In this document: one piece after another, positions 7,538 through 20,160 of the stretch | How positions within the stretch are numbered: the stretch's first letter is position 1 | How the letters are laid out: each line of letters starts with the position of its first letter | Origin: Oligoflexus sp. | Lineage (GTDB): Bacteria; Bdellovibrionota_B; Oligoflexia; Oligoflexales; Oligoflexaceae | Reading direction: 5' to 3' | Assembly (NCBI GenBank): GCA_041736305.1 | Contig: JBGSTX010000381.1 | Coordinates: 1-27,991 of the forward strand | Length of the DNA: 27,991 nucleotides | Translations under genes and position numbers: made by a program | The notes under the pieces: model-generated | Told to the model about the DNA's origin: nothing | What the model saw: only the letters and a program-made list of their open reading frames with translations | The model's database searches: none

Positions 7538-9916
7538 CTATTTTCTGACGAAGGTGTAGACACCGTCCCAAGAAGCAGGCATGGCTTGGAGCTCTGCCTC
7601 TTGGCAGCGCTCGATATAGAGCCTCGAAGCCACGTCATCAGACCGAAGTTCCAAACACTGCCCAAATAAAGCAATAGCAGCGACCCAGTCCTGTCGCTTG
7701 TAAGCTTGGCGTCCTGCGGCAAAGCGATCAATAAAGGCTCGCAGTTCAGCTTCTGATCTGAAGGTATGAGGCAGCATGACTTCGAAAATATGTACGGGCT
7801 CTCGCTTGCCTTTGACCCGAACATCATCGATATCGCGCAGGAAGAAATGGCCCGGAGTGAGCTGCTTCTGTGTAAATTCACTAATCAGGATGCTAACCCC
7901 GTATTCCTTAGTGAGGCTTTCGAGGCGCGAGCCAAGATTGACAGCATCGCCCATGACGGTATAGGTAAACCTCTCGTTCGATCCCATGTTGCCTACGGAC
8001 ATGAAGCCTGTATTCAGGCCGATCCCGATATCGATGGGTGGGAGTCCTCGCTCTTTGAATTCCAGCTTCAGGCGATCCATGGCCCGCATCATATCGAGAG
8101 CCGCCTTCGCAGCGATATCTGCATGCTGTGGCAATTCGATCGGAGCACCCCAGAAGGCCATGATCGCATCGCCGATATACTTGTCCAGCACACCGCCGCT
8201 GCGTAAGATAATGGAAGTCATTGGCGTAAAATACTGATTCATCATGCTGCACAGGGCTTCTGGAGTCAGCGATTCAGAAATGCTGGTGAAACCTCGCATA
8301 TCTGAAAACAAGACGGTCAGTTCCCGCTTTACCCCACCGAGCTGCATGGCCTTAGGATTGTCTAGCAGCTGCTTGATGACTGCGGGGCTCAGGTAATGCT
8401 GAAAGGTCCCTTTGACCTTTTTCCGCTCCCTCTCCTCGGTAAAATATTTATAAAGCGTGGTCAAGCCGAACATCGAGAAGATTTCCAGACTGGGAATGGC
8501 GAGATAAGCCCAGGTTCCCTGGCCGAACCAGAAAAATTTGTCGACGCAGAGGTAGCCCAGGAGGAAAGCCAGGACCGCGATGCCGGATATCAGGGCCTGT
8601 CCGTAGATCATGAGCGGCGCAAACAAGAGACCGATGCCGAGAATGATCAGGAGTTCGGTTCTATAGATGCTAGTCGATCGCAGGAGGTAGCGCTGCGATA
8701 AAATATTATCAAGAGCCGCCGCGTGATTCTCTACGCCATCCAGCGAGGAGTCGAAGGGATTGGCGCGGATATCGTTGGTCCCCGATGCTGTCCCGCCAAA
8801 GATCAAGATAGCGTCTTTGAGGAACTTTTTCTCGCGCTTGCTAAAGGAATTGTTATATGCATCAGCTAGGCTGAAATGGGGAATGCTGTGGCTCGGTCCC
8901 AGGTGGTTGATCAGCATGCGACCGCTACCACGCGCATCGGTCGGGATCTCGATCACGTCCTCAGGATTATCTCGCTTGACCAAAACGAGACTATTGATCC
9001 CAAACTCATCGAAAACTACCGCTATCTCGCGATCGAGACTTTCTGCGGCTAGCTTGAGCGACAAAGAAGGCATGAGGCTGCCACCTACGTCGGCCACCAA
9101 GGTGATCCAGCGATTGATCGCATCGTTGTCGGCATTGTTCGAAAAGAAGCCGAAATGATGCGCAGCTCCCGTCAGTGGAGGAATATTGGCCAGGATGCCC
9201 TTCGCTCTGGCGAGCTCTCTATAGCTAGCGAGAGTTCGCCCTGAGGGCATGTCGATCATGATTTCGGATGCTTCCTTCATCGGCCCTAACTGCGGGAAAA
9301 CCGAGTTTTCAGCGACAGGTTTCAAAGTGATTTCGGAATCATGCTCGAAGTATAAATATCCCATGACGATGTTTGCGAAGGTAGCAATTGCCTGCGTAAA
9401 AGAGCTATCAGCCGGGCTTTCCTGCAAGATCTTATCGAGTTTAGCCACCTCAAAAGAAGCCGGACTACGGCTGGTTCGCAGCTCTTCGATCACTTGGGAA
9501 AAGTCAGGCCCGGTAGCGCCTTCAACCTCGGCAAAGATCGCATCGAAGCCGATCCACCTCACGCCCAAGTTTTTGAGATTTTGAAAGGCCTGAGCGTAGT
9601 AGCGCCGCGAGAAGGGCCAGCGACCGAACTGCGCGATCGCTTTCTCATCGACGGCGAGGATGCCGATTTTGCTGGAACTGTGCAGAGGCCCACGCAGCTT
9701 CATACGCAGATCGAGTATCTTTGACTCGATCATATAGACGAAGTCGCTGTCCTTATTGTCGAAGCGGAAGCTCTTGTAGTGGTAGAGCATAGCCCCGTAG
9801 CTGGCGAGCATACAGGCCATGCAAATCCCTATCAGCATGGCCCGCTTTTTGAGATGGCTACCGAGGCCTTTGAAAAAGAGCTTGCTAGAGCTTCGATGGC
9901 TCAAAGCCTGCCTCAC
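7538..9916 (-). CDS. CHASE2-domain class III adenylate cyclase
   Basis: CHASE2 motifs (FGRWPFSR, IGFDAIFAE, GVENHA), TM helices, and cyclase motifs LFSDMRGFT, DKYIGDAIMAFWGAP, TYTVMGDAVNLGSRLE. The Lys/Thr specificity pair indicates ATP. Short TPR-like tail. Confidence 0.93.
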   Translation of the reverse strand: MRQALSHRSSSKLFFKGLGSHLKKRAMLIGICMACMLASYGAMLYHYKSFRFDNKDSDFVYMIESKILDLRMKLRGPLHSSSKIGILAVDEKAIAQFGRWPFSRRYYAQAFQNLKNLGVRWIGFDAIFAEVEGATGPDFSQVIEELRTSRSPASFEVAKLDKILQESPADSSFTQAIATFANIVMGYLYFEHDSEITLKPVAENSVFPQLGPMKEASEIMIDMPSGRTLASYRELARAKGILANIPPLTGAAHHFGFFSNNADNDAINRWITLVADVGGSLMPSLSLKLAAESLDREIAVVFDEFGINSLVLVKRDNPEDVIEIPTDARGSGRMLINHLGPSHSIPHFSLADAYNNSFSKREKKFLKDAILIFGGTASGTNDIRANPFDSSLDGVENHAAALDNILSQRYLLRSTSIYRTELLIILGIGLLFAPLMIYGQALISGIAVLAFLLGYLCVDKFFWFGQGTWAYLAIPSLEIFSMFGLTTLYKYFTEERERKKVKGTFQHYLSPAVIKQLLDNPKAMQLGGVKRELTVLFSDMRGFTSISESLTPEALCSMMNQYFTPMTSIILRSGGVLDKYIGDAIMAFWGAPIELPQHADIAAKAALDMMRAMDRLKLEFKERGLPPIDIGIGLNTGFMSVGNMGSNERFTYTVMGDAVNLGSRLESLTKEYGVSILISEFTQKQLTPGHFFLRDIDDVRVKGKREPVHIFEVMLPHTFRSEAELRAFIDRFAAGRQAYKRQDWVAAIALFGQCLELRSDDVASRLYIERCQEAELQAMPASWDGVYTFVRK

Positions 9917-11141: not shown

Positions 11142-11867
11142 ATGCTCGTATTGAAAGCGCTCTTGCTCGCATGTAGTCTGCTGTCTTTGCTGCCAGCCAG
11201 CCTCGCCCTATCTGCCTTGGCTGACGAGGGATTTAAGTACCCCGAGCTCCTTGTCGTGCCACGGGCAAGCCAGACACTGGCTAAAAAGGCTGCAGACGAG
11301 AACCAATCTCGCTTCACCACTCATCTGCTGCTTCAGGCTCCAGCAGTCCTGACTTTGACCGCCGGTCTGAGCGCTATGGGAATGAAGGAAGACCAAAGCA
11401 AAGACACGGGTCTCTTCGCTACAGGCGTAGGGGCTAGTTGGTTGATGATGACGGTCTTTATGAGTGCTGCGTATACTCCCTACCGGTCCGGGCTGCAAGA
11501 GGTCAGCTCCATGGGCAAGAAATCGGTGGAGCAGACTCTGGCGGCCGAAAGGCGCGCAGAAGAGGCCTTGCAGTATCCAGCCTATATCATGCGCCGTCTC
11601 CAATACATTTCAGTACTGACTCAGTTCGGTGCCGGCGTAGCCGTAGCGGGTCTGGCGGAAGAGAACGAAAGCAGCAAAGTGCTGGGGGGCATGGCTGCGG
11701 CGGCTGCACTCTTGCCTCTTATCTTTTCGCATCCCTGGATCGAAGCTTACGATCAGCAGCTTGAGTATAAGAAGCGCATCTATGGGCCACTCAGCGAGGT
11801 GACGCTGCTATTGGACAATAGGACCGGTCGCCTGGTCCCGGGTTTTAGCCTCCGGGTCTGGCTTTGA
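11142..11867 (+). CDS. Hypothetical membrane/exported protein
   Basis: GAGG RBS before ATG 11142, signal peptide, several hydrophobic helices. Confidence 0.7.
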   Translation: MLVLKALLLACSLLSLLPASLALSALADEGFKYPELLVVPRASQTLAKKAADENQSRFTTHLLLQAPAVLTLTAGLSAMGMKEDQSKDTGLFATGVGASWLMMTVFMSAAYTPYRSGLQEVSSMGKKSVEQTLAAERRAEEALQYPAYIMRRLQYISVLTQFGAGVAVAGLAEENESSKVLGGMAAAAALLPLIFSHPWIEAYDQQLEYKKRIYGPLSEVTLLLDNRTGRLVPGFSLRVWL

Positions 11868-12755
11868 AACAGGCTGTGATGGGGACGGAGCGCGGCTCAA
11901 AGCGGCAAGGTCTTTGGCGAAAGTGATGGCCTGAGCGCGCTCGAGCCCCAACTCATTCCTGTCGCGTGCGAACTTAAAGGCTGCAATAAAATTTTTGCCA
12001 CCTTCGACATGGACCTTCATTACGTCTCTGGCGATCTGCATGGCGTCGTAGCTCGGAAGCTGTGGGCCGTCCTTATCCTCCCGTAAAAATTCCATCAGTG
12101 CGATGAAGGCCGAGCCTACCGACTTAGTCTTGGTCTCGATATCGTAGGAAATCAAATCAGCAGAGAATTTTGCGCAGTTGGGCCGGCTGAGCCCTAAGCC
12201 CTCCTTTGAAAGACAGTATTCCACCAGCTTTTTGAATTCGCTTGCCTTTAGAGCACTTTGCCGACTGGAGTTCAAGGCGACAATGCGGGCCAGACCTATG
12301 GCTTCGGGCAAGGGCAAATCCAGATAATTCTCCAAAAAGGCGAACCTGAAAACTTCAACAAAGGTCTTCGAACTCTCATCGTTGCTCAGGGCCAGGTCCT
12401 GAGCTAGTTTTGTGGCTTCAGACACGATAACGCCGGCAGTCATCAGAATCTCAAAGACTCGGATAAAGCGTCCAGCAGCGCCGTCGCAAGCCTTAGCCAC
12501 CGAAAAAGCAGTACGAGACAGCTGGTCCTTAGTTTGGCCGAGTTCTTTTTTGTTCATAAGATACGTGTAGGTGGTCACATATTCTTTGTAAGCATCGCAG
12601 AGCTTGGCTTCGGGATGGTGTACAATGCAGACTTCTGCCGTCTGGTCCAAGGTGCACTCCAAACCCGCTCGGTTCGACGATGAGAGCGAGGACGCGCAGG
12701 ATGCGCTCATGATCCCTGTGAGGCCCAGCCAACGTATTCTTGCAAGATTCAGCAT
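11808..12755 (-). CDS. Hypothetical lipoprotein with alpha-helical repeats
   Basis: Lipobox-like SASC, AAGGA RBS, internal repeats of about 40 aa. Confidence 0.75.
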   Translation of the reverse strand: MLNLARIRWLGLTGIMSASCASSLSSSNRAGLECTLDQTAEVCIVHHPEAKLCDAYKEYVTTYTYLMNKKELGQTKDQLSRTAFSVAKACDGAAGRFIRVFEILMTAGVIVSEATKLAQDLALSNDESSKTFVEVFRFAFLENYLDLPLPEAIGLARIVALNSSRQSALKASEFKKLVEYCLSKEGLGLSRPNCAKFSADLISYDIETKTKSVGSAFIALMEFLREDKDGPQLPSYDAMQIARDVMKVHVEGGKNFIAAFKFARDRNELGLERAQAITFAKDLAALSRAPSPSQPVSKPDPEAKTRDQATGPIVQ

Positions 12756-13013
12756 GCTTTAATTCCTTGTCTCAGGCTAACAAGTTCGCAGTATAGCAAA
12801 TAGGATCGCGTGAGTACGGGTCTTTCGATCGCAGCCAACCCCATCGTCGACGTGCCAGTCGGACCGAAGGCGTCGTGTAAACCCTATTCATAAAATAGAA
12901 TTATGCTTTCAGCCATGGTAGACCCGAGCATGGCGCCTTGGGATGCATCGAATCGCTTGCTGAAATTACGTGCTCGCTGCTAAATTCTCTCTTTTTCAAT
13001 AGGGAGACATTCG

Positions 13014-14084
13014 GTGAAACGGAACACATTTGGTTACTCAATTCGTGCTCGGACACTTCCTGTATTTGCAGCCAGTCTATTTTTCACCTCCGAGATGTCT
13101 AAGGCCGAATCTTTAAGTCTTTTGCGAGAGATCAAGGGCGTACGCAATGCATATTCTTACGATGCGAAGGAAAACTCTCTGAGTTATCTGGAAAAGCTTA
13201 AGACGCCTGGAGGGGCCAGCAGCAGCGATACCGATTGCAGCCTAAAATTAAAAAAGACCTTTCTCGCCACGGATCAAACCACAATTCTGTTTGATAGAGA
13301 AAAGTTGCCAATAGCAGGATTTATTGGCTGTACCACGACAAACGAAATCGTGGCTGACGGCGGAAAAACCATGCTCCTGGGCGAGACTGTCATCAATATT
13401 GGAGAGAGAGACAGTTGGGTGTCGTTTGCCAAAATCAACACCAATGGCCGCGACGGAGATGATACCAGAATTGAAACTGTAAAGACTTTCACTTCTGAAA
13501 AAGCGCTGAGCTTTCGCTTTCAACTCCTAGACGATGGCGAAGTTAAAGTTATTGGCTTAGATAATCTGGGGCCCCTGACGCCTGATGGTCAGCGCCAAGT
13601 GGTCAGCGGACGCTATCTTGAGAGCCGAGATAATAGTAAGGTCTATCTGCAAAGCAACTCTGGAGAGACCTTAGCCGTCCTACAACGACCGAGCGCCTAT
13701 CAGAGACGCCGTATCGTACCTGTCGACAACAAGCGTATTTTACTTTTGGAAGATAAGCAGGTCGGATATTACTCAATAGCAAATGACCGGTTCTCGAAGA
13801 TATTTGAACTAACAACTCCGTCTGATATCGATTCGGACCGGTATTTTCAAGCAGCAGCTTTCTCACCTGAGCAGAGATACCTAGCAACCCTCGAGTATGG
13901 GAATGGATCTTCGAAGGTCGCCATCTATGATACCGCAAACGGCGCACTCTTGCATTCGGTCGATGTTAGCGATGCCTCTTTTAAGCCGCTTTGGGTATTC
14001 GAAAGTGCCAAAATAGAGTTCATTTCTAAAAATCGTTTTCTTGTTAATTTGAAAGATTCCTTGAGAACTTATTCGATCGATTAG
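13014..14084 (+). CDS. Hypothetical secreted protein, probable beta-propeller
   Basis: GGGAG RBS, signal peptide, WD40-like blade AAFSPEQRYLAT...VAIYDTANGALL. Confidence 0.65.
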   Translation: MKRNTFGYSIRARTLPVFAASLFFTSEMSKAESLSLLREIKGVRNAYSYDAKENSLSYLEKLKTPGGASSSDTDCSLKLKKTFLATDQTTILFDREKLPIAGFIGCTTTNEIVADGGKTMLLGETVINIGERDSWVSFAKINTNGRDGDDTRIETVKTFTSEKALSFRFQLLDDGEVKVIGLDNLGPLTPDGQRQVVSGRYLESRDNSKVYLQSNSGETLAVLQRPSAYQRRRIVPVDNKRILLLEDKQVGYYSIANDRFSKIFELTTPSDIDSDRYFQAAAFSPEQRYLATLEYGNGSSKVAIYDTANGALLHSVDVSDASFKPLWVFESAKIEFISKNRFLVNLKDSLRTYSID

Positions 14085-14109
14085 ACCGTCTACCTGTTTA
14101 ATTTAGCTT

Positions 14110-15777
14110 ATGAGGCAACATCCCTTGAAAAACTATCAGTTCAAACCAGCCTTTCTTATGGCAAGCTTAGCAACGGCGGCTCTACAGCTGAGCTCCCCCC
14201 TAATGGGTAGCGCCTTCGCATCGCATGAGACGAATACTAAATTCATCGAGCCTCCGATCGCAAGCTATGCAGATTTGAAGAATGCGATCATTCAAAACCG
14301 CTTGAAAAGCGTTGATGCCCTGATGAGTTATGTGAGGACAAATTCGCAAGACTCTCTAGACCGCTTCACACTCGCGTTTGCAAGCCGCAGCTTGCATGCG
14401 GCATCGTTTCGCTATCCTCGCCTGATCGCGTTTGGCAAGGACCATGGAAGCGAATTGAATGCCGACCATACCCTGCTCAATCCCAAACTTGATTCGGACT
14501 ACAACAACCTGGTTTTTGCCGTTTCTGGTGATCCTGAGTCTAAAAGGAGCCGGATCATCGAAGTCATGGAATTTATTCCGGCTGAGAACCGATTTGAGTT
14601 CCATGAGATAACATTTCCTGAAAATGGTTTGGAAGGGGTCAGTTTCACCGAAAACGCCCAATCATGTTTAACTTGCCACGGAATGAATCCGAAGCCCATA
14701 TGGGATGCCTACACTCTTTGGCCCGGCCTCTATGGAGGCGAGCAGCACACCTTTGATGGCCAAACGAAGGAATTCAAGCTTTTCCAGGATTTCAAGGCTC
14801 AATCAAGCTTAATAAGTCCTTATAAGCATCTCGATCAACAGGCTGTATCCTCTGTATTTTCCTTGGACAACCTTAAGAGTCCATTCCCGGAAGTATCAGT
14901 TCAGCTGGAAAGCAAAAACCATCGAAGGGTCATCCAAGAATTTATCGACAATCCATCGAAGAGAAACGGGAGATTCGCGCTTGCAATGGCCTTGGGTGCC
15001 TGTGACGAGAATCAGCTAATCAGCATACTCGGGTACGATATCAATGAAGGCAAGTCACTGCTCAAGCTCGAGAGTGATTATGTGGGAGAGCGCTTGAGTG
15101 CATATGATATCGACCTAGCCAAGAGAAGTCGGCAGATGCATGGCCTCCCGTTGCCGACAGAGAAGGAATATGGCCCTTATCCCGTGGAGAAAGAAGTGGC
15201 TATGATGCAGTTCGTATTACGGCATTTCAATAGCCATCTCCGAGATTGGACCCTGTCTCTCTTAATGGACAGTGCTGAGCTTTCCACAGGAGGCCGCTAC
15301 TTTTTCTTTCCTGTTCTGGAAGAATTCAGGAAAGTCGTGCGTTATGATCCTGATTTTGGATTATTCCTGGCTTCGACTGAAGGACGGAAACCCTACGATC
15401 GGCTCAGGCCCGAAGTTTGCCAAGATCTCGAGAATAAGCATCAACGTATCAACGGTAACGCGGCCAAGGTCCAGTATGTACCAAGCAGCTGGGTTTCCCA
15501 TGCTGAAACTACCGATGCAAACTCTATCATTATACGCTGTGCCACCTGCCATGCCTCTGAGAAGTTCTCGCGTGAAGTACCGCAATATCCATTACTTGAC
15601 TCAAGCAAAATGAAGGAATTGCTCACGGTTAAAGAAAAAGCACTAGCCGCGAAGTTCTTGGATCGCATTTCGAGCAATGACCCTAATACTCGTATGCCGC
15701 CCGCACCGCATCGGGCGCTAACTTCAGGAGAAAAGGAAGCTTTCCGCGCTTACTTGGATGCCTTACTCATGCACTAG
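14110..15777 (+). CDS. Secreted di-heme c-type cytochrome of unknown function
   Basis: Signal peptide, two CxxCH motifs (CLTCH, CATCH), C-terminal RMPP axial-Met motif. Confidence 0.8.
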   Translation: MRQHPLKNYQFKPAFLMASLATAALQLSSPLMGSAFASHETNTKFIEPPIASYADLKNAIIQNRLKSVDALMSYVRTNSQDSLDRFTLAFASRSLHAASFRYPRLIAFGKDHGSELNADHTLLNPKLDSDYNNLVFAVSGDPESKRSRIIEVMEFIPAENRFEFHEITFPENGLEGVSFTENAQSCLTCHGMNPKPIWDAYTLWPGLYGGEQHTFDGQTKEFKLFQDFKAQSSLISPYKHLDQQAVSSVFSLDNLKSPFPEVSVQLESKNHRRVIQEFIDNPSKRNGRFALAMALGACDENQLISILGYDINEGKSLLKLESDYVGERLSAYDIDLAKRSRQMHGLPLPTEKEYGPYPVEKEVAMMQFVLRHFNSHLRDWTLSLLMDSAELSTGGRYFFFPVLEEFRKVVRYDPDFGLFLASTEGRKPYDRLRPEVCQDLENKHQRINGNAAKVQYVPSSWVSHAETTDANSIIIRCATCHASEKFSREVPQYPLLDSSKMKELLTVKEKALAAKFLDRISSNDPNTRMPPAPHRALTSGEKEAFRAYLDALLMH

Positions 15778-15998: not shown

Positions 15999-16303
15999 TC
16001 AATGACTGAGATTTTTGAGCAGGTGAAGGCAACGATCAAACTCCTTCGCATAGAGGTCACGCACTCGCTCATAAATTTCGATGCTGAGATTCTCATTGTA
16101 GATATGGACGGTAAGGTTTCTGTCGTTGATCATTTTGAGCCAGAGCACCTCATCACTTATCAGAGCCATGGAAAAGGCCGCCTTGATAGCCTGCTTTGGC
16201 GAACCCACGATGAGGCCGTCACTCGCTGCTTGCTTCTGAAAAGTTTTCCAAAAAAGTTCATAACAGAACTCAAAGCCTTCAAGTTTTTCTCAAGATCACT
16301 CAT
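15999..16303 (-). pseudogene. HI0074-family nucleotidyltransferase substrate-binding (HEPN-type) protein, internally deleted and frameshifted
   Basis: GGAAGGA RBS then ATG 16303 (MSDLEKNLKAL). A frame change near 16269-16279 leads into FEFCYELFWKTFQK...SPKQAIKAAF...WLKMINDRNLTVHIYNE, with the Rx4H motif RNLTVH. The segment normally between these parts appears to be missing. Confidence 0.75.
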
Positions 16304-16317
16304 CAATGACAATTCCT

Positions 16318-16425
16318 TCCGCGCCGTCAAGTCTCTACACTTTCATCACCGCTAGTGTGATGCTTAGCTCGGGATTGTCATCGCCTTGAAGCGTTAAGAG
16401 TTCCCCGAATTTGACGCGTTCTACT
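16318..16425. repeat. 108-bp perfect direct repeat, copy A (group I intron core P3-P7); putative att site
   Basis: Identical base for base to 19927-20034 (offset 3609). Confidence 0.97.
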
Positions 16426-16513
16426 TCTGAAGTTTCCTTCAGAGCACTCAAATTAGCCGCTCAAAGGCAGCCCGAATAAGTCTTATGAGCCTACCGGTAT
16501 CCCCACCTGATGC
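16318..16513 (-). pseudogene. Degenerate tRNA-Leu 5' half plus 5' two-thirds of a group I intron
   Basis: Minus strand reads ...CGGTAGGCTCATAAGACTT (16/19 identical to the intact 5' exon end), then a variant P1, a variant P2 (TCTGAAG-GAAA-CTTCAGA) and the identical core. P8, S, P9 and the 3' exon are absent. Confidence 0.8.
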
Positions 16514-16817
16514 GAATTTCCATAATAATGTCATAGTGCTGTGATGGAGGCGGCGAGGGAGTGGTGTAGGCGTTAAAAGGATGTAGGGCTTACATGATTC
16601 TTATCGGCACCCGGCTCGATATATTGTTGATAGGGGGGGAATTTAAGGTTGACGTGCTGCTGCCACTTCTTTGTGTGCACGTCACGGCAATGCTGTGCCT
16701 AGTTGTCTATTGATTTTGAGCAATCAGACATGGACCCATCACCTGATCTGCAGTATTCTAAAAATGTCAGATCCACTCGACAAATTTGTATGGTTAGGCT
16801 GACAAACTCAGAATAAA

Positions 16818-17978
16818 ATGGATAAAACCATGATAATATTGGATTTTAAAGAGACTCTCCAAGCCCGACTTGGCGAGTTTCAGCCTCTCATTCAAGTGAT
16901 TCTTGGCCCACGTCAAGTTGGCAAAACCACAGCTATAGAACAAATAACGAATGCACTTTCAAACATCACTCCGGTCCATTATGCATCAGCAGACGCTGTG
17001 TTTCACAGTGACTGGAGTTGGATCGAAAGACAATGGTTGGCGGCCGAGGCAGCTGGTCCTGGAACGTTACTGGTTTTGGATGAAATTCAAAAAGTCGAAA
17101 ATTGGTCTGAAGTCATCAAAAAACTCTGGGATGCTAATCGACGGAGTAAAGTGCACCTTAAAGTCGTTTTACTTGGGTCAAGTTCCTTAGCATTGCAAAC
17201 GGGTTTGTCAGAGAGTCTGACCGGTCGATTTGAATTAATTCGCGCTTACCATTGGAACTATGTGGAATGCAAAGAGGCCTTTGATTATGACTTAGACGAC
17301 TACTTGCGATTCGGCGGTTATCCTGGAGCCGCTCCTTTCCGCTCTGATGAGATGCGATGGCTCTCCTATATTAAATCATCCATTGTTGAAACTGTTTTGG
17401 AAAAAGACATTTTGCAACTACGCCGAGTAGCGAGACCGGCATTATTCAAACAAGTTTTCGAGCTCCTTTGTAGCTACCCGGCGGCAGAGATAAGCTTGAG
17501 GAAACTCGTAGGACAACTGCAAGACCCGGGAAGTATAGAAACAGTTAAGCATTACATTGAGTTGTTCGAAGGTGCTTTCCTTGTGAAAACGCTCCAAAAA
17601 TTCAGCACGAATCCACTCCAAAAAAAATCATCGAGTCCTAAAATTCTACCTCTTTGCCCTGCGCTCTGTTCATTCGCTCGTGGAGAAACAAGTCTAAATC
17701 CAGATCTTAGAGGGCGCTTATTCGAATTAATTGTAGGACTCGACCTTATGCGACTGCCAGGGGAACTCTACTACTGGAGAGTTGACCACGATGAAGTGGA
17801 CTACGTCTATCGGCAAGGCAAATCCATTACAGCTATTGAAGTTAAATCTGGTCGCAAAAAATCGCAGCATGGACTCGCTCGCTTCCGCGAGAACTTTACT
17901 TCAGCCCGGTGCCTCGTTTTAACTCCTGAAAATTACCTTATATTCGCGAAAGACCCAGCTACCTTTGTGAATCACTAA
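16818..17978 (+). CDS. AAA_14-type ATPase with DUF4143 / C-terminal PD-(D/E)xK-like domain
   Basis: Walker A GPRQVGKTT, Walker B LVLDEIQ, LLGSS, ESLTGR, GGYP and C-terminal EVDYV...AIEVKSG. Confidence 0.9.
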   Translation: MDKTMIILDFKETLQARLGEFQPLIQVILGPRQVGKTTAIEQITNALSNITPVHYASADAVFHSDWSWIERQWLAAEAAGPGTLLVLDEIQKVENWSEVIKKLWDANRRSKVHLKVVLLGSSSLALQTGLSESLTGRFELIRAYHWNYVECKEAFDYDLDDYLRFGGYPGAAPFRSDEMRWLSYIKSSIVETVLEKDILQLRRVARPALFKQVFELLCSYPAAEISLRKLVGQLQDPGSIETVKHYIELFEGAFLVKTLQKFSTNPLQKKSSSPKILPLCPALCSFARGETSLNPDLRGRLFELIVGLDLMRLPGELYYWRVDHDEVDYVYRQGKSITAIEVKSGRKKSQHGLARFRENFTSARCLVLTPENYLIFAKDPATFVNH

Positions 17979-18278
17979 ACCTGTGGGTTTATTTGAGCGT
18001 AGCTAATCCAAAGGTTTGCCTCAGGCGTCGAGCGTCTCAAATTATGAATAAACAGTCTCGGGCATTGGCCGATTTTTGATGAGAATGAAAGGGTCGATCC
18101 TGAGTATATGCAGTTGATCACTCGCATCGGTGATCAGATTTTTTTCTCTTTAATTGATGATCTTGAGACGGAAAATCAGCATCCTTGCATGTCTGGCAGC
18201 GGTGATAGGTCGGGCTCAGGGGGCAAACTGACCGTCACTTATACAGTTGTCAAGCCGGGTGTTGTAAGCTTCCCGTTC

Positions 18279-18700
18279 TTAAGGTCCGTCCCTTTTGCTA
18301 GGCTTTTTAAACTTAGGCAGTTGAGTGAATTGCACAGGAATGGCCCGGCAAGCCTTTGGCTCTGATCGGTTATAGAGAGGAAGCAGCAGCAAAGCCTGCA
18401 AATAGCGCATTCCCCAGACGAAATTTGTGGAAAAATGAGGCGAGAGACTGTCTCGCTGCCAGGATGTCCCTTTAATCTTTTTGCCTGTCTTTCGTATCAA
18501 AGTATCATCAAAGGCAACTGCAATCAGGGCCTCGTCTACAAAGCTGCGCAGCTTTGCGAAGAATAGGCCGGAACAGATGACAAGGACTCCACCGACACCG
18601 ACTGAACAGCCTGTAGTCGGCGCTCCAGTCAAGTTGATCACGCCCAGATGCGGCTAAAGCGCGCGTAAATAATTTCCTCCCCATGGCCATCAGCCAATTC
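18279..18700 (-). pseudogene. IS701-like (DDE superfamily) transposase fragment, frameshifted and truncated at both ends
   Basis: GRKLFTRALAASGRDQLDWSADYRLFSRCRW in one frame continues, after a shift near 18540-18560, as VAFDDTLIRKTGKKIKGTSWQRDSLSPHFSTNFVWGMRY. Confidence 0.75.
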
Positions 18701-19513
18701 CTGATGCAACAAAATCTCAAAAGCACAACTATGAATCGTATTTATACGAGTCTCCGTCGCTACTTAAATTATTTAGACTACGCGGGCGTTCACCAAGGAG
18801 TTCATCTGCCTCCCCAAGAACCACTTTCGAAAGATGAGATATCTGGCAAGCAGATCCCCGGTCAACTACCTACATGGGATTATCTTCTGGGTGTTTTGAA
18901 AAAAATGAAGCCGGGGTATGAGCGTTGGGTAATGACTATGTGCGTAGCCTTCGGAGTTCGAGTTTCGGAAGCATTACGTATACAGCCCGAACATTTACTT
19001 GGCAGCGAGACGGTCGGGACCGGTAGTGAGAACGATTTTATTGCGCGAATAAACCGTATTTATAAGCCTTTTCTATATGCATGTGTCACAGAATCTGAGC
19101 AACGCATCAAAGTTAATAGTCACATTTTAAAAGTTCTCGGTGAAGACCCAGACGACCCAAAAAGCGGGGACTACAATGCAGCGTGCATTGACGAAGGCAT
19201 TGCTGAATTTATATTAACGATTATTGGAAACGAGGAATTCGTTCGACATGAGGATTTTGTCTACAATCGACTTAGCACTGCAATCAAATCTCTTCCGGTC
19301 GATGAAGAAATTAAGTTACAAGAGTATGGCTACCACGACTTTCGCCGAGTACAAATCACGCTTATGTCGTTAAGTTGGGGATTAAATACCGACGTATCTC
19401 AATGTCATGGGCATGTAGGGCTGAATACAACAAGTAAATATTATCAATGGGCATTGGCGCTGCAGAGAAAGAGTAGAATTCAAACCCTAAAGCTTATTCG
19501 GAAGGAAGCCTAA
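18683..19513 (+). CDS. Tyrosine recombinase/integrase, probably N-terminally truncated
   Basis: Catalytic signature FGVRVSEAL (R), HDFRR (HxxR), HGH and TTSKYY (Y). Core-binding-like TMNRIYTSLRRYLNYL. The start abuts or overlaps the IS fragment. Confidence 0.8.
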   Translation: MAISQFLMQQNLKSTTMNRIYTSLRRYLNYLDYAGVHQGVHLPPQEPLSKDEISGKQIPGQLPTWDYLLGVLKKMKPGYERWVMTMCVAFGVRVSEALRIQPEHLLGSETVGTGSENDFIARINRIYKPFLYACVTESEQRIKVNSHILKVLGEDPDDPKSGDYNAACIDEGIAEFILTIIGNEEFVRHEDFVYNRLSTAIKSLPVDEEIKLQEYGYHDFRRVQITLMSLSWGLNTDVSQCHGHVGLNTTSKYYQWALALQRKSRIQTLKLIRKEA

Positions 19514-19758
19514 TTATTAACTTTCAGAAATTTGTACTTACGTCCTTTGTAGACGTTCACACGATTACAGTAAGCACGCAAGAAAAACAGATCTGATTCG
19601 ATAAGGCGGTCATCTTTAAGACGCTGGCCGATCTCCTTTCGAAGCGGAGTGTCATCAAAACCCCTGTCGAAAATTCGCAGATATCCCGACAAAAGTCCCT
19701 TCGCAGAATCTTGGTCTTTATCTTTATTTTCTTCGAAAACCATCTTAAAGATAGCCAT
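19510..19758 (-). CDS. Small hypothetical protein (possibly a gene fragment)
   Basis: 82-aa ORF filling the gap between the tRNA 3' end and the integrase stop. No recognisable motif. Confidence 0.4.
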   Translation of the reverse strand: MAIFKMVFEENKDKDQDSAKGLLSGYLRIFDRGFDDTPLRKEIGQRLKDDRLIESDLFFLRAYCNRVNVYKGRKYKFLKVNN

Positions 19759-19841
19759 TACAATTCCGACAAAATAAAGTGCAAAGTAGTGGTGCTCCCA
19801 GCCAGACTTGAACTGGCACGACCTTACGGTCGCAAGATTTT

Positions 19842-20089
19842 CTTACCACTTCGACTTTCGCAGCCTCTTCTTAACGAAGAGTTCGTGGTCTGGACTTTCT
19901 CTTGACCATCGCCTTGAGGCATTAGGTCCGCGCCGTCAAGTCTCTACACTTTCATCACCGCTAGTGTGATGCTTAGCTCGGGATTGTCATCGCCTTGAAG
20001 CGTTAAGAGTTCCCCGAATTTGACGCGTTCTACTCCAAGCGTTTCCACTTGGGCACTCCGTGATTACAGCGAAAATGGCTGTAATATCA
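19842..20089 (-). ncRNA. Group I self-splicing intron (IC3-like), 248 nt, no ORF
   Basis: Inserted after the first anticodon U and ends in G. P1 ACUU/GAGU has a U.G pair at the splice site. P AAATTCGGGGAA, Q AATCCCGAGC, R GTGTAGAGACTTGACGG, S AAGAGAAAGTCC. P3 CGCGTC/GGCGCG, P2 capped by GAAA, P9.0 ACCAC/GTGGT. Confidence 0.95.
19927..20034. repeat. 108-bp perfect direct repeat, copy B (inside the intact intron)
   Basis: Identical to 16318-16425. Confidence 0.97.
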
Positions 20090-20160
20090 AAGTCTTGTGT
20101 GTCTACCGATTCCACCATGAGAGCATTCTATCGAATCTGTCATCTAAGTCCAAAAAGAGA

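Follow-up and report, generated by a model that had tools for sequence, protein, structure and literature searches.

The window, as we call the whole stretch of 27,991 nt analyzed here, is one whole contig of a MAG of 392 contigs (92.7% complete). It harbors on the minus strand an intact tRNA-Leu(UAA) gene (20124-19790), which is split by a 248-nt group I intron (copy B), and, 3.6 kb away in direct orientation, a 196-nt fragment (16513-16318, minus strand) of such an intron with its 5′ exon (copy A). The two copies have in common a block of 108 nt on the minus strand that is 100% identical. Between them lie, among others, the genes for a divergent tyrosine recombinase (integrase) and for an ATPase (Table 1).

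Table 1. Positions in the window of the two intron copies and of the genes around them, and tRNA-Leu genes linked to the integrase family.
Feature	Position	Strand	Evidence or remark
Copy B 5′ exon	20090-20124	-	Ends CTT; direct reading
Copy B group I intron, 248 nt	19842-20089	-	Inserted CTT/..G/AAAA, anticodon loop; RF00028 match
Copy B P2, CCAAGTG-GAAA-CGCTTGG	20052-20035	-	Pairs 7/7
108-nt block inside intact intron B	19927-20034	-	Identical to copy A core
Copy B 3′ exon, AAAATCTTG ... ACCA	19790-19841	-	Direct reading
82-aa ORF	19510-19758	-	Directly downstream of copy B tRNA gene; no family match
Tyrosine recombinase (integrase), divergent, 276 aa	18683-19513	+	phrog_1, E 2.1e-9; transcribed towards tRNA gene
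Possible transposase fragment (weak hint)	18279-18641	-	Only PF13546 DDE_5, E 0.086
AAA_14/DUF4143 ATPase	16818-17978	+	PF13173, E 1.3e-22; PF13635, E 6.2e-22
Copy A degenerate tRNA-Leu-like 5′ exon	16478-16513	-	Ends AAGACTT; 26/35 vs. B
Copy A P1 with extension, guide and P2	16426-16477	-	RNAfold, 7/7 P2 pairing, covariation
Copy A P1 plus extension	16477-16450	-	
Copy A guide segment GAGTGC	16449-16444	-	
Copy A P2, TCTGAAG-GAAA-CTTCAGA	16443-16426	-	Pairs 7/7
Copy A core: J2/3, P3, P4, P5, P6, P7 5′ strand, P3′	16318-16425	-	108/108 to 19927-20034
HEPN-type gene remnant (nucleotidyltransferase substrate-binding family)	15999-16330	-	PF08780, E 2.6e-17; abuts copy A break
Integrase-linked tRNA-Leu	Window		UAA, with intron
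Integrase-linked tRNA-Leu	G003:C39		CAA, other group I intron (48.5 bits), 82-aa ORF homologue
Integrase-linked tRNA-Leu	G002:C30		CAA, intronless
Integrase-linked tRNA-Leu	G053:C152		CAA, intronless, integrase broken

The copy B gene was defined by direct reading and by comparison with relatives, of which G003 and G005 are MAGs of the same genus (Oligoflexus sp.). The 5′ exon is identical in 35/35 positions to those of G005 and G003 and the 3′ exon in 52/52 positions to that of G003; the whole gene is 86% identical to that of G005 and 79% to that of G003. In the acceptor stem GCTCTCA pairs with TGGGAGC, which belongs to the 3′ exon. On direct reading the exons make up acceptor, anticodon and T arms and agree with the genes of those relatives that have no intron and in which the two exons abut. 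The intron is inserted between CTT and AAAA of the anticodon loop of tRNA-Leu(UAA), as in introns of the Leu.3Ug type, pairs U-1 to a G of the guide in P1 and has a terminal G (at 19842) before the 3′ splice site. At permissive thresholds RF00028 matched copy B in full length, with all 253 positions aligned, at 36.9 bits (E 5.9e-7, the gathering score of 50 bits not being reached); the core from P3 to P9 is complete in B and incomplete in A. An Rfam scan of the window at the gathering threshold gave no match, and ARAGORN reported no tRNA in the window and also missed copy B in a genome-wide run with introns allowed. Besides copy B no tRNA-Leu(UAA) exon sequence was found in the 392-contig assembly with blastn-short and ARAGORN. 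That it is the sole tRNA-Leu(UAA) gene found in the assembly argues that copy B must splice. Intron B contains an 11-mer, TCAAGGCGATG, twice, in its P5 loop and in its P8 region (window 19900-19915 and 19985-20000, minus strand); the four related introns do not show the repeat, which could be due to chance or to a small internal duplication.

Copy A had been described at 16426-16513 in a sequence-only reading that preceded this analysis, and direct reading proved its coordinates and description correct. In the 5′ exon of copy A there is no U8, one D-stem register contains a T-T mismatch, and 2/7 positions would mispair if the first seven bases faced the 3′ acceptor strand of B. At the other side copy A ends directly after P3′ (GACGGCGCGGA) and is devoid of P8, the 3′ strand of P7 (P7′), P9, the terminal G and the 3′ exon. 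RF00028 scored it at 27.6 bits (E 3.5e-4), below the gathering score of 50 bits, and in the cmscan alignment everything 3′ of P3′ was of low posterior probability, with no credible P8, P7′ or P9. Because P8, P7′, P9 and the 3′ exon are missing, copy A is predicted to be dead, a non-functional scar. The sequence-only reading had mentioned neither the truncation of copy A at the 3′ side nor its lack of function.

The sequence past 16318 is unrelated to the intron and leads into the HEPN-type gene remnant, in which a 69-aa ORF (15999-16208) matches PF08780 at profile positions 63-125 of 126. The remnant is split over two frames, with the upstream part in the other frame across a T run. It seems to be without part of its N-terminal half, and no partner nucleotidyltransferase gene was recognizable next to it. 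Two other roles or origins for copy A were considered and rejected. The idea that it is one half of a trans-splicing intron was dropped because a separate 3′ half is absent from the whole assembly, and reverse splicing as the origin does not explain why copy A includes a 5′ exon.

With RNAfold the 5′ regions of both copies fold into one architecture, consisting of P1, an extension hairpin and P2, with ACUU of the exon paired with GAGU and, in P1 of both folds, the last exon U paired to G. For copy A the minimum was -21.5 kcal/mol (z -2.85; 2/200 shuffles as good) and for copy B -24.1 kcal/mol (z -5.44; 0/200 shuffles as good).

The core pattern AGTAGAAYNNGTCAAATTCGGGGAA was found at 58 loci in a collection of species-representative genomes. 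Going by the titles of the records, the hosts are planctomycetes, acidobacteria, relatives of Fimbriimonas, large sulfur bacteria, alphaproteobacteria, Bacteroidota and relatives of Oligoflexus, and the loci sit in several different tRNA genes. Eighteen distinct sequences with the layout guide, 7 nt, GAAA, 7 nt, core were aligned. In 13 of them P2 pairs in 7/7 positions, in one in 6/7 and in four in 5/7, which amounts to 92.9% of the cells paired vs. 64.5% in shuffles, none of 500 shuffles reaching 92.9%. All seven pairs change on both sides among these family members, and when the partner strand is slid out of register the pairing falls to 25-52%. Since P2 covaries across the 18 members and the stems of both copies pair in 7/7 positions, P2 of A and P2 of B are two sound variants of one covarying helix. 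The sequence-only reading had noticed the two different, paired stems, and the family of 18 members places both of them within natural covariation.

Six sequences, those of A and B and the introns of four relatives, were compared segment by segment. Between A and B the P2 hairpins agree in 12/18 positions and differ in 6/18, and the P1 extensions, which differ in length, agree in 17/31. Within the 108-nt block, the P5 and P6 loops of A and B are identical in 23/23 and 18/18 positions (41/41 together). The same loops of B agree with those of G005 in 18/25 and 11/18 positions and with those of G003 in 21/23 and 10/19, so that relatives of the same genus differ from B by about a third in these loops. 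As the identity covers the hypervariable P5 and P6 loops, the mosaicism is real and one of the two copies a mosaic. The sharp switch to identity had already been taken as a sign of mosaicism, and the 41/41 positions bear this out. What the sequence-only reading had left out is that, of the 108 nt, 67 are near-invariant in the genus, in three stretches of 25/25, 16/16 and 25-26/26, and therefore carry no information on history; only the P5 and P6 loops are informative. For the same reason the identity could predate the recombination and be its cause, not its result.

Outside the block the 5′ parts of the two copies match different alleles of the genus, for B resembles G005 and P2 of A is nearer to G003. 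Copy B agrees with G005 in 25/33 positions of the P1 extension, 15/18 of P2 and 40/45 of P9. P2 of copy A agrees with that of G003 in 13/18 and with that of G005 in 9/18 positions. When the 5′ part of copy A was used as query in a BLAST search of 131 genomes of the phylum, the sole match was that of IGS-P2 to G003 (87% over 45 nt). In an unrelated run (X2) a contig was found in which a normal 5′ exon is followed by a G003-like P1 extension and by a stretch that aligns with copy A at 16320-16451 with 11 mismatches and three gap positions; this contig with the A-type IGS-P2 contains a full-length intron.

For the 5′ exon of copy A there was no match in the 131 phylum genomes. An exact 25-mer across its exon-intron junction was absent from the metagenome contigs scanned, as was an exact 32-mer from the core, so that these scans brought up neither extra alleles nor a donor. 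Altogether, no donor for the exon or the P1 extension of copy A was found in the 131 phylum genomes and the two exact-pattern scans of metagenome contigs.

Two copies 3.6 kb apart, in direct orientation and with an identical core could also have arisen by local partial duplication of B, the 5′ part of the new copy having then decayed. We hold this to be highly improbable. Decay cannot step from 108/108 to 12/18 in P2 and to 17/31 in P1 extensions of different length with P1 and P2 still perfectly paired, the compensatory changes in P2 contradict it, and IGS-P2 of copy A matches the type of G003 and X2. The perfect pairing, the covariation and the G003/X2-type IGS-P2 all speak for the earlier view that P1 and P2 of copy A belong to a separately evolved, structurally sound allele and are not those of a decayed B.

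The two copies were also looked for in sequencing runs. The 108-nt block makes up a unitig of its own in the probable source run (X1, Logan unitigs), with a depth of 13.1, and the four arms of the block have depths of 8.25, 8.06, 7.3 and 8.1. The block has about twice the depth of the arms, which fits two copies in one genome. Runs X4 and X6 gave short pieces only. None of the records listed in any run spans the block, and the order of the joins across this repeat rests on the original assembler. An alternative arrangement is therefore conceivable, in which the chromosome contains the 5′ part of B joined via the block to the HEPN side, next to a 3609-bp circle composed of the 5′ part of A and the 3′ part of B, or in which both forms coexist. 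At k=31 all words are common to both arrangements, and the block is, as mentioned, a separate unitig without a spanning record among those listed. The four arms, however, are equal in depth (7.3-8.25, the block having 13.1), and the alternative would leave the sole tRNA-Leu(UAA) gene of the assembly with a mispairing exon. We regard this arrangement as unlikely, for in the present assembly the B gene aligns with those of G003 and G005 over its full length and has exons that pair with one another.

The low-GC segment between the copies, of about 3.3 kb, carries the integrase and has copy A on its far side. As the sequence-only reading had assumed, an integrase is indeed present between the copies. 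Its ORF is intact and ends 277 nt from the 3′ end of the copy B tRNA gene. The phrog_1 match spans residues 9-263; PF00589 (Phage_integrase) gave E 0.041 and, against a cut-off of 27.1, only 14.1 bits. With its homologues the protein shares AFGVR.SEA, HDFRR and HGH..T..Y, which we take to be the R/HxxR/H/Y pattern of tyrosine recombinases. No relatives of the integrase were found in viral contigs by alignment, no phage record was matched by protein, and a sequence search of the PDB gave chance-level matches only.

For the 82-aa ORF tblastn revealed homologues in G005:C162 (34%; L086 2741-2938) and G003:C39 (30%; L090 7686-7886), in both cases directly downstream of an intron-bearing tRNA-Leu gene, and none at the integrase-linked, intronless tRNA-Leu(CAA) loci of G002 and G053. 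The 82-aa ORF may be an accessory gene of the element. The ATPase has paralogues that are patchy in the genus, and since none of them is located beside a tRNA gene we consider the ATPase as cargo and not as a marker of the element. An 85-aa ORF is also present between copies A and B.

Contigs of the unrelated run X2 are about 96% identical to the ATPase region. They match the window at 16660-18262, diverge at 16660 and at 18006, and the last piece ends at 18262. The stretch 16660-18262 may be a cassette that moves on its own.

The GC content is 0.43-0.50 at 13-20 kb vs. 0.51-0.55 at 8-13 kb and at 20-24 kb. The low GC reaches beyond copy A, which thus lies inside a foreign-looking block and not at its end, and more than one island may therefore be present. 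Upstream of B, the genes for a metalloprotease, an HD_5 protein, a 237-aa protein and a GGDEF protein are syntenic with the tRNA-Leu loci of G003, G005, G015 and G019; the downstream side of B is not syntenic with these four, which differ there also among each other. Short direct repeats of at least 9 nt were not found at the borders of A and B except for one chance 9-mer. The lower-GC block next to copy A contains three ORFs (315, 356 and 555 aa) at 11808-15777 that have no match in Pfam, PHROGs and NCBIfam; in the 555-aa protein, CLTCHG and CATCHA resemble haem-binding CxxCH motifs.

In 4 of 40 relatives this intron was found in tRNA-Leu(UAA), with identities of 86% (G005), 79% (G003), 72% (G019) and 71% (G015). 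In 10 of the 40, five of these from the same genus, the exons abut (intronless allele). Homologues of the integrase are present in 4 of the 131 phylum genomes, including that of the window, and each is located 0.3-2.9 kb from a tRNA-Leu gene (Table 1). The intron of the tRNA-Leu(CAA) gene in G003:C39 (L090 8086-8438, minus strand) is a different group I intron of 271 nt (ARAGORN) that RF00028 scores at 48.5 bits. A degenerate 5′ half ending GGATTCAAAA precedes this gene by about 200 nt, and at 89-328 of the same contig there is a group II intron domain.

In G005 a 5′ half with the native upstream flank, which is common to G003, ends exactly at CTTAAAA, and 165 nt past it there is a complete gene with an intron. 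The upstream flank of this gene is foreign, and an 82-aa ORF homologue accompanies it. Judging from this arrangement, the intron-bearing copy of G005 has been inserted into an intronless gene. In an alphaproteobacterial MAG (Rhodospirillaceae) a 5′ half likewise ends at CTTAAAA and is separated by about 215 nt from a complete intron-bearing gene. Downstream of it the MAG has an IS630-type transposase, a 17-nt repeat of the tRNA 3′ end and a DUF6538 protein, a remnant of a domain with which integrases begin at the N terminus. Upstream 5′ halves of tRNA-Leu are also present in G002 and G015, and in G003, G005 and G010 hipA genes have as neighbors intronless tRNA-Leu fragments that extend from the D-loop to the 3′ end. 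Integration at the tRNA-Leu genes of this group is thus frequent, and intron-bearing copies have a part in it.

The intronless fragments are of tRNA-Leu(UAA) and were located at L103 (G005:C73) 9477-9555 and 11438-11477, L093 7645-7717 and L092 2217-2289. Each of the fragments flanking hipA is then followed, in three genomes of the same genus, by a similar terminator-like hairpin. The distance between the two in G005, 1.9 kb, is suggestive of tandem islands.

On plasmid pCTX-M3 (NC_004464.2; L112), too, a group I intron was encountered within a complete tRNA-Leu(UAA) gene. This gene lies at 2455-2755 on the minus strand, in a module bounded by IS26 and ISCfr1, past aac(3)-IId and the "AAA family ATPase" gene behind it. 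The plasmid copy is about 74% identical to copy B (19835-20059) over 213-225 nt and is scored by RF00028 at 36.8 bits. It matches 1266 PLSDB records (Escherichia 485, Klebsiella 357, Salmonella 114, and others), and among complete E. coli genomes 636 of 5426 contain it at an identity of at least 99%. None of the six rows listed has an annotated feature under the match, and a literature search found no description of a plasmid-borne split tRNA-Leu(UAA) gene. The enterobacterial resistance module is a case in which the same broad intron family, together with its tRNA gene, does ride on mobile DNA.

With slightly more confidence than doubt, we propose that copy A is a recombination or gene-conversion scar of island traffic at a tRNA-Leu hotspot. 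Two intron alleles of different lineages of the genus would have met at the locus via an integrative element with a tRNA-Leu sequence that recombined with the resident gene. Either a crossover in pre-existing identity, or a later gene conversion between direct repeats 3.6 kb apart, would then have gone through the conserved catalytic core. The exchange tract would have ended where the homology collapses at P2, the central 108 nt becoming identical, and a later deletion would have stripped copy A of P8-P9 and the 3′ exon. The sequences show the structure of both copies, the mosaic, the truncation of A, the integrase with its tie to tRNA-Leu genes and the hotspot in the relatives, whereas the order of these events, which of the copies came on the element and whether the exchange was homologous or site-specific are the parts that we infer. 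With four related alleles compared, any choice of the mosaic copy or of the direction of the exchange is tentative.

The sequence-only reading had derived copy A from an independently evolved intron. As to import, the comparative hints rather favor B, with the 82-aa ORF and the integrase, as the traveling module: the combination of an intron-bearing tRNA-Leu gene and the 82-aa ORF recurs in G005 and in G003:C39, with or without the integrase, and the copy closest to B is the inserted one of G005. These hints weakly suggest that B may be the imported copy and A the older resident.

Some findings do not fit easily. The island model predicts a displaced fragment that extends from the crossover to the 3′ end of the gene, whereas copy A is a 5′ part, and at least one extra deletion therefore has to be assumed. 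No 3′ tRNA-Leu fragment was found elsewhere in the 392-contig assembly, and the lack of border repeats and of a donor for A in the genomes and contigs named above also speaks against the proposal.

The repeat could instead be the product of a site-specific reaction with the intron core as target, copy A being the attachment-site arm of the element, a mimic of tRNA-Leu and its intron, and the 108-nt block the identity of attP and attB. An intact integrase ORF indeed has a perfect 108-nt direct repeat on either side, two stretches of 25 nt and 26 nt, the longest invariant ones of the intron, mark the limits of the block, and the degenerate exon would fit an arm that was never part of a working tRNA. 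After excision, however, the chromosome would hold a gene that breaks off past P3′ and continues into the HEPN remnant, which makes the far side of A implausible as the original target. In the relatives the displaced halves either stop at the anticodon loop (CTTAAAA) or begin in the D-loop, an indication of sites in the exons and not in the intron, and the loci of G002 and G053 carry this integrase family without an intron. There would also be no reason for P1 and P2 of copy A to keep their perfect pairing. We therefore judge this explanation to be rather improbable.

Group I introns at CUU/AAAA of tRNA-Leu(UAA) are classical. A 2002 study from Rudi and coworkers, by its title, deals with the evolution of introns at the tRNA-Leu locus of cyanobacteria by transfer and recombination. 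Copy B shares with the classical introns the CTT/AAAA site, U-1:G in P1, the terminal G, the lack of an ORF and the length of about 250 nt. It differs from them in its host, which is an Oligoflexus-like MAG and not a cyanobacterium, in its Rfam score below the gathering threshold, in that the presence of the intron is polymorphic within the genus, and in the truncated second allele nearby. A survey described in the Williams preprint raises the number of tRNA settings of group I introns to 21, in many phyla; according to this preprint none of the 12 Rfam seeds is bacterial, and the survey works from 18-20 bits.

In the island model (Islander, PMC4383910) the tRNA gene is regenerated and the displaced fragment runs from the crossover to the 3′ end of the gene. 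With such islands the locus has in common an integrase at the 3′ side of the tRNA gene, a foreign, low-GC flank and a direct repeat at the far side. A tyrosine integrase does lie beside the tRNA gene of copy B; synteny to four relatives is seen upstream of B and not downstream, and the low GC at 13-20 kb extends past copy A. Unlike in that model, the repeat consists of the intron core and not of the tRNA 3′ end, the fragment comprises a 5′ part, with another P1/P2 allele and without a 3′ exon, and the island, of about 3.3 kb, looks degraded.

Randau and Soll (2008), as cited in PMC4090602, proposed that introns shield archaeal tRNA genes from integrating viruses. The intron found here likewise splits the anticodon stem-loop, where the halves in the relatives end (CTTAAAA). 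In contrast to those archaeal introns, which are protein-spliced, an intron copy may here come with the integrating element. Since the site that these integrases appear to use, the anticodon stem-loop, is interrupted by the intron, the new copy might be protected from further insertion. The review PMC3984707 states that there is little evidence of horizontal movement among bacterial species and no direct evidence of a reverse-splicing route. In a limited literature search we found neither a truncated second intron allele beside an integrase nor an island-borne tRNA group I intron.

Taken alone, the fragment at 16426-16513 would be a non-functional scar. Together with the related loci it provides concrete cases at the DNA level: two neighboring alleles that share a recombination tract, integrases linked to tRNA-Leu genes, and a relative whose intronless gene has received an intron-bearing copy. 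The idea that islands ferry such introns thereby becomes testable. Tentatively, and with doubt prevailing, we extend it to the proposal that integrase elements targeting tRNA-Leu carry an intron-bearing tRNA-Leu copy or its 3′ portion, that their insertion turns intronless alleles into intron-bearing ones, and that it unites alleles which can then recombine via the invariant core. If true, this would be a DNA-level route, free of homing endonucleases, for the spread and the domain shuffling of group I introns without an ORF.
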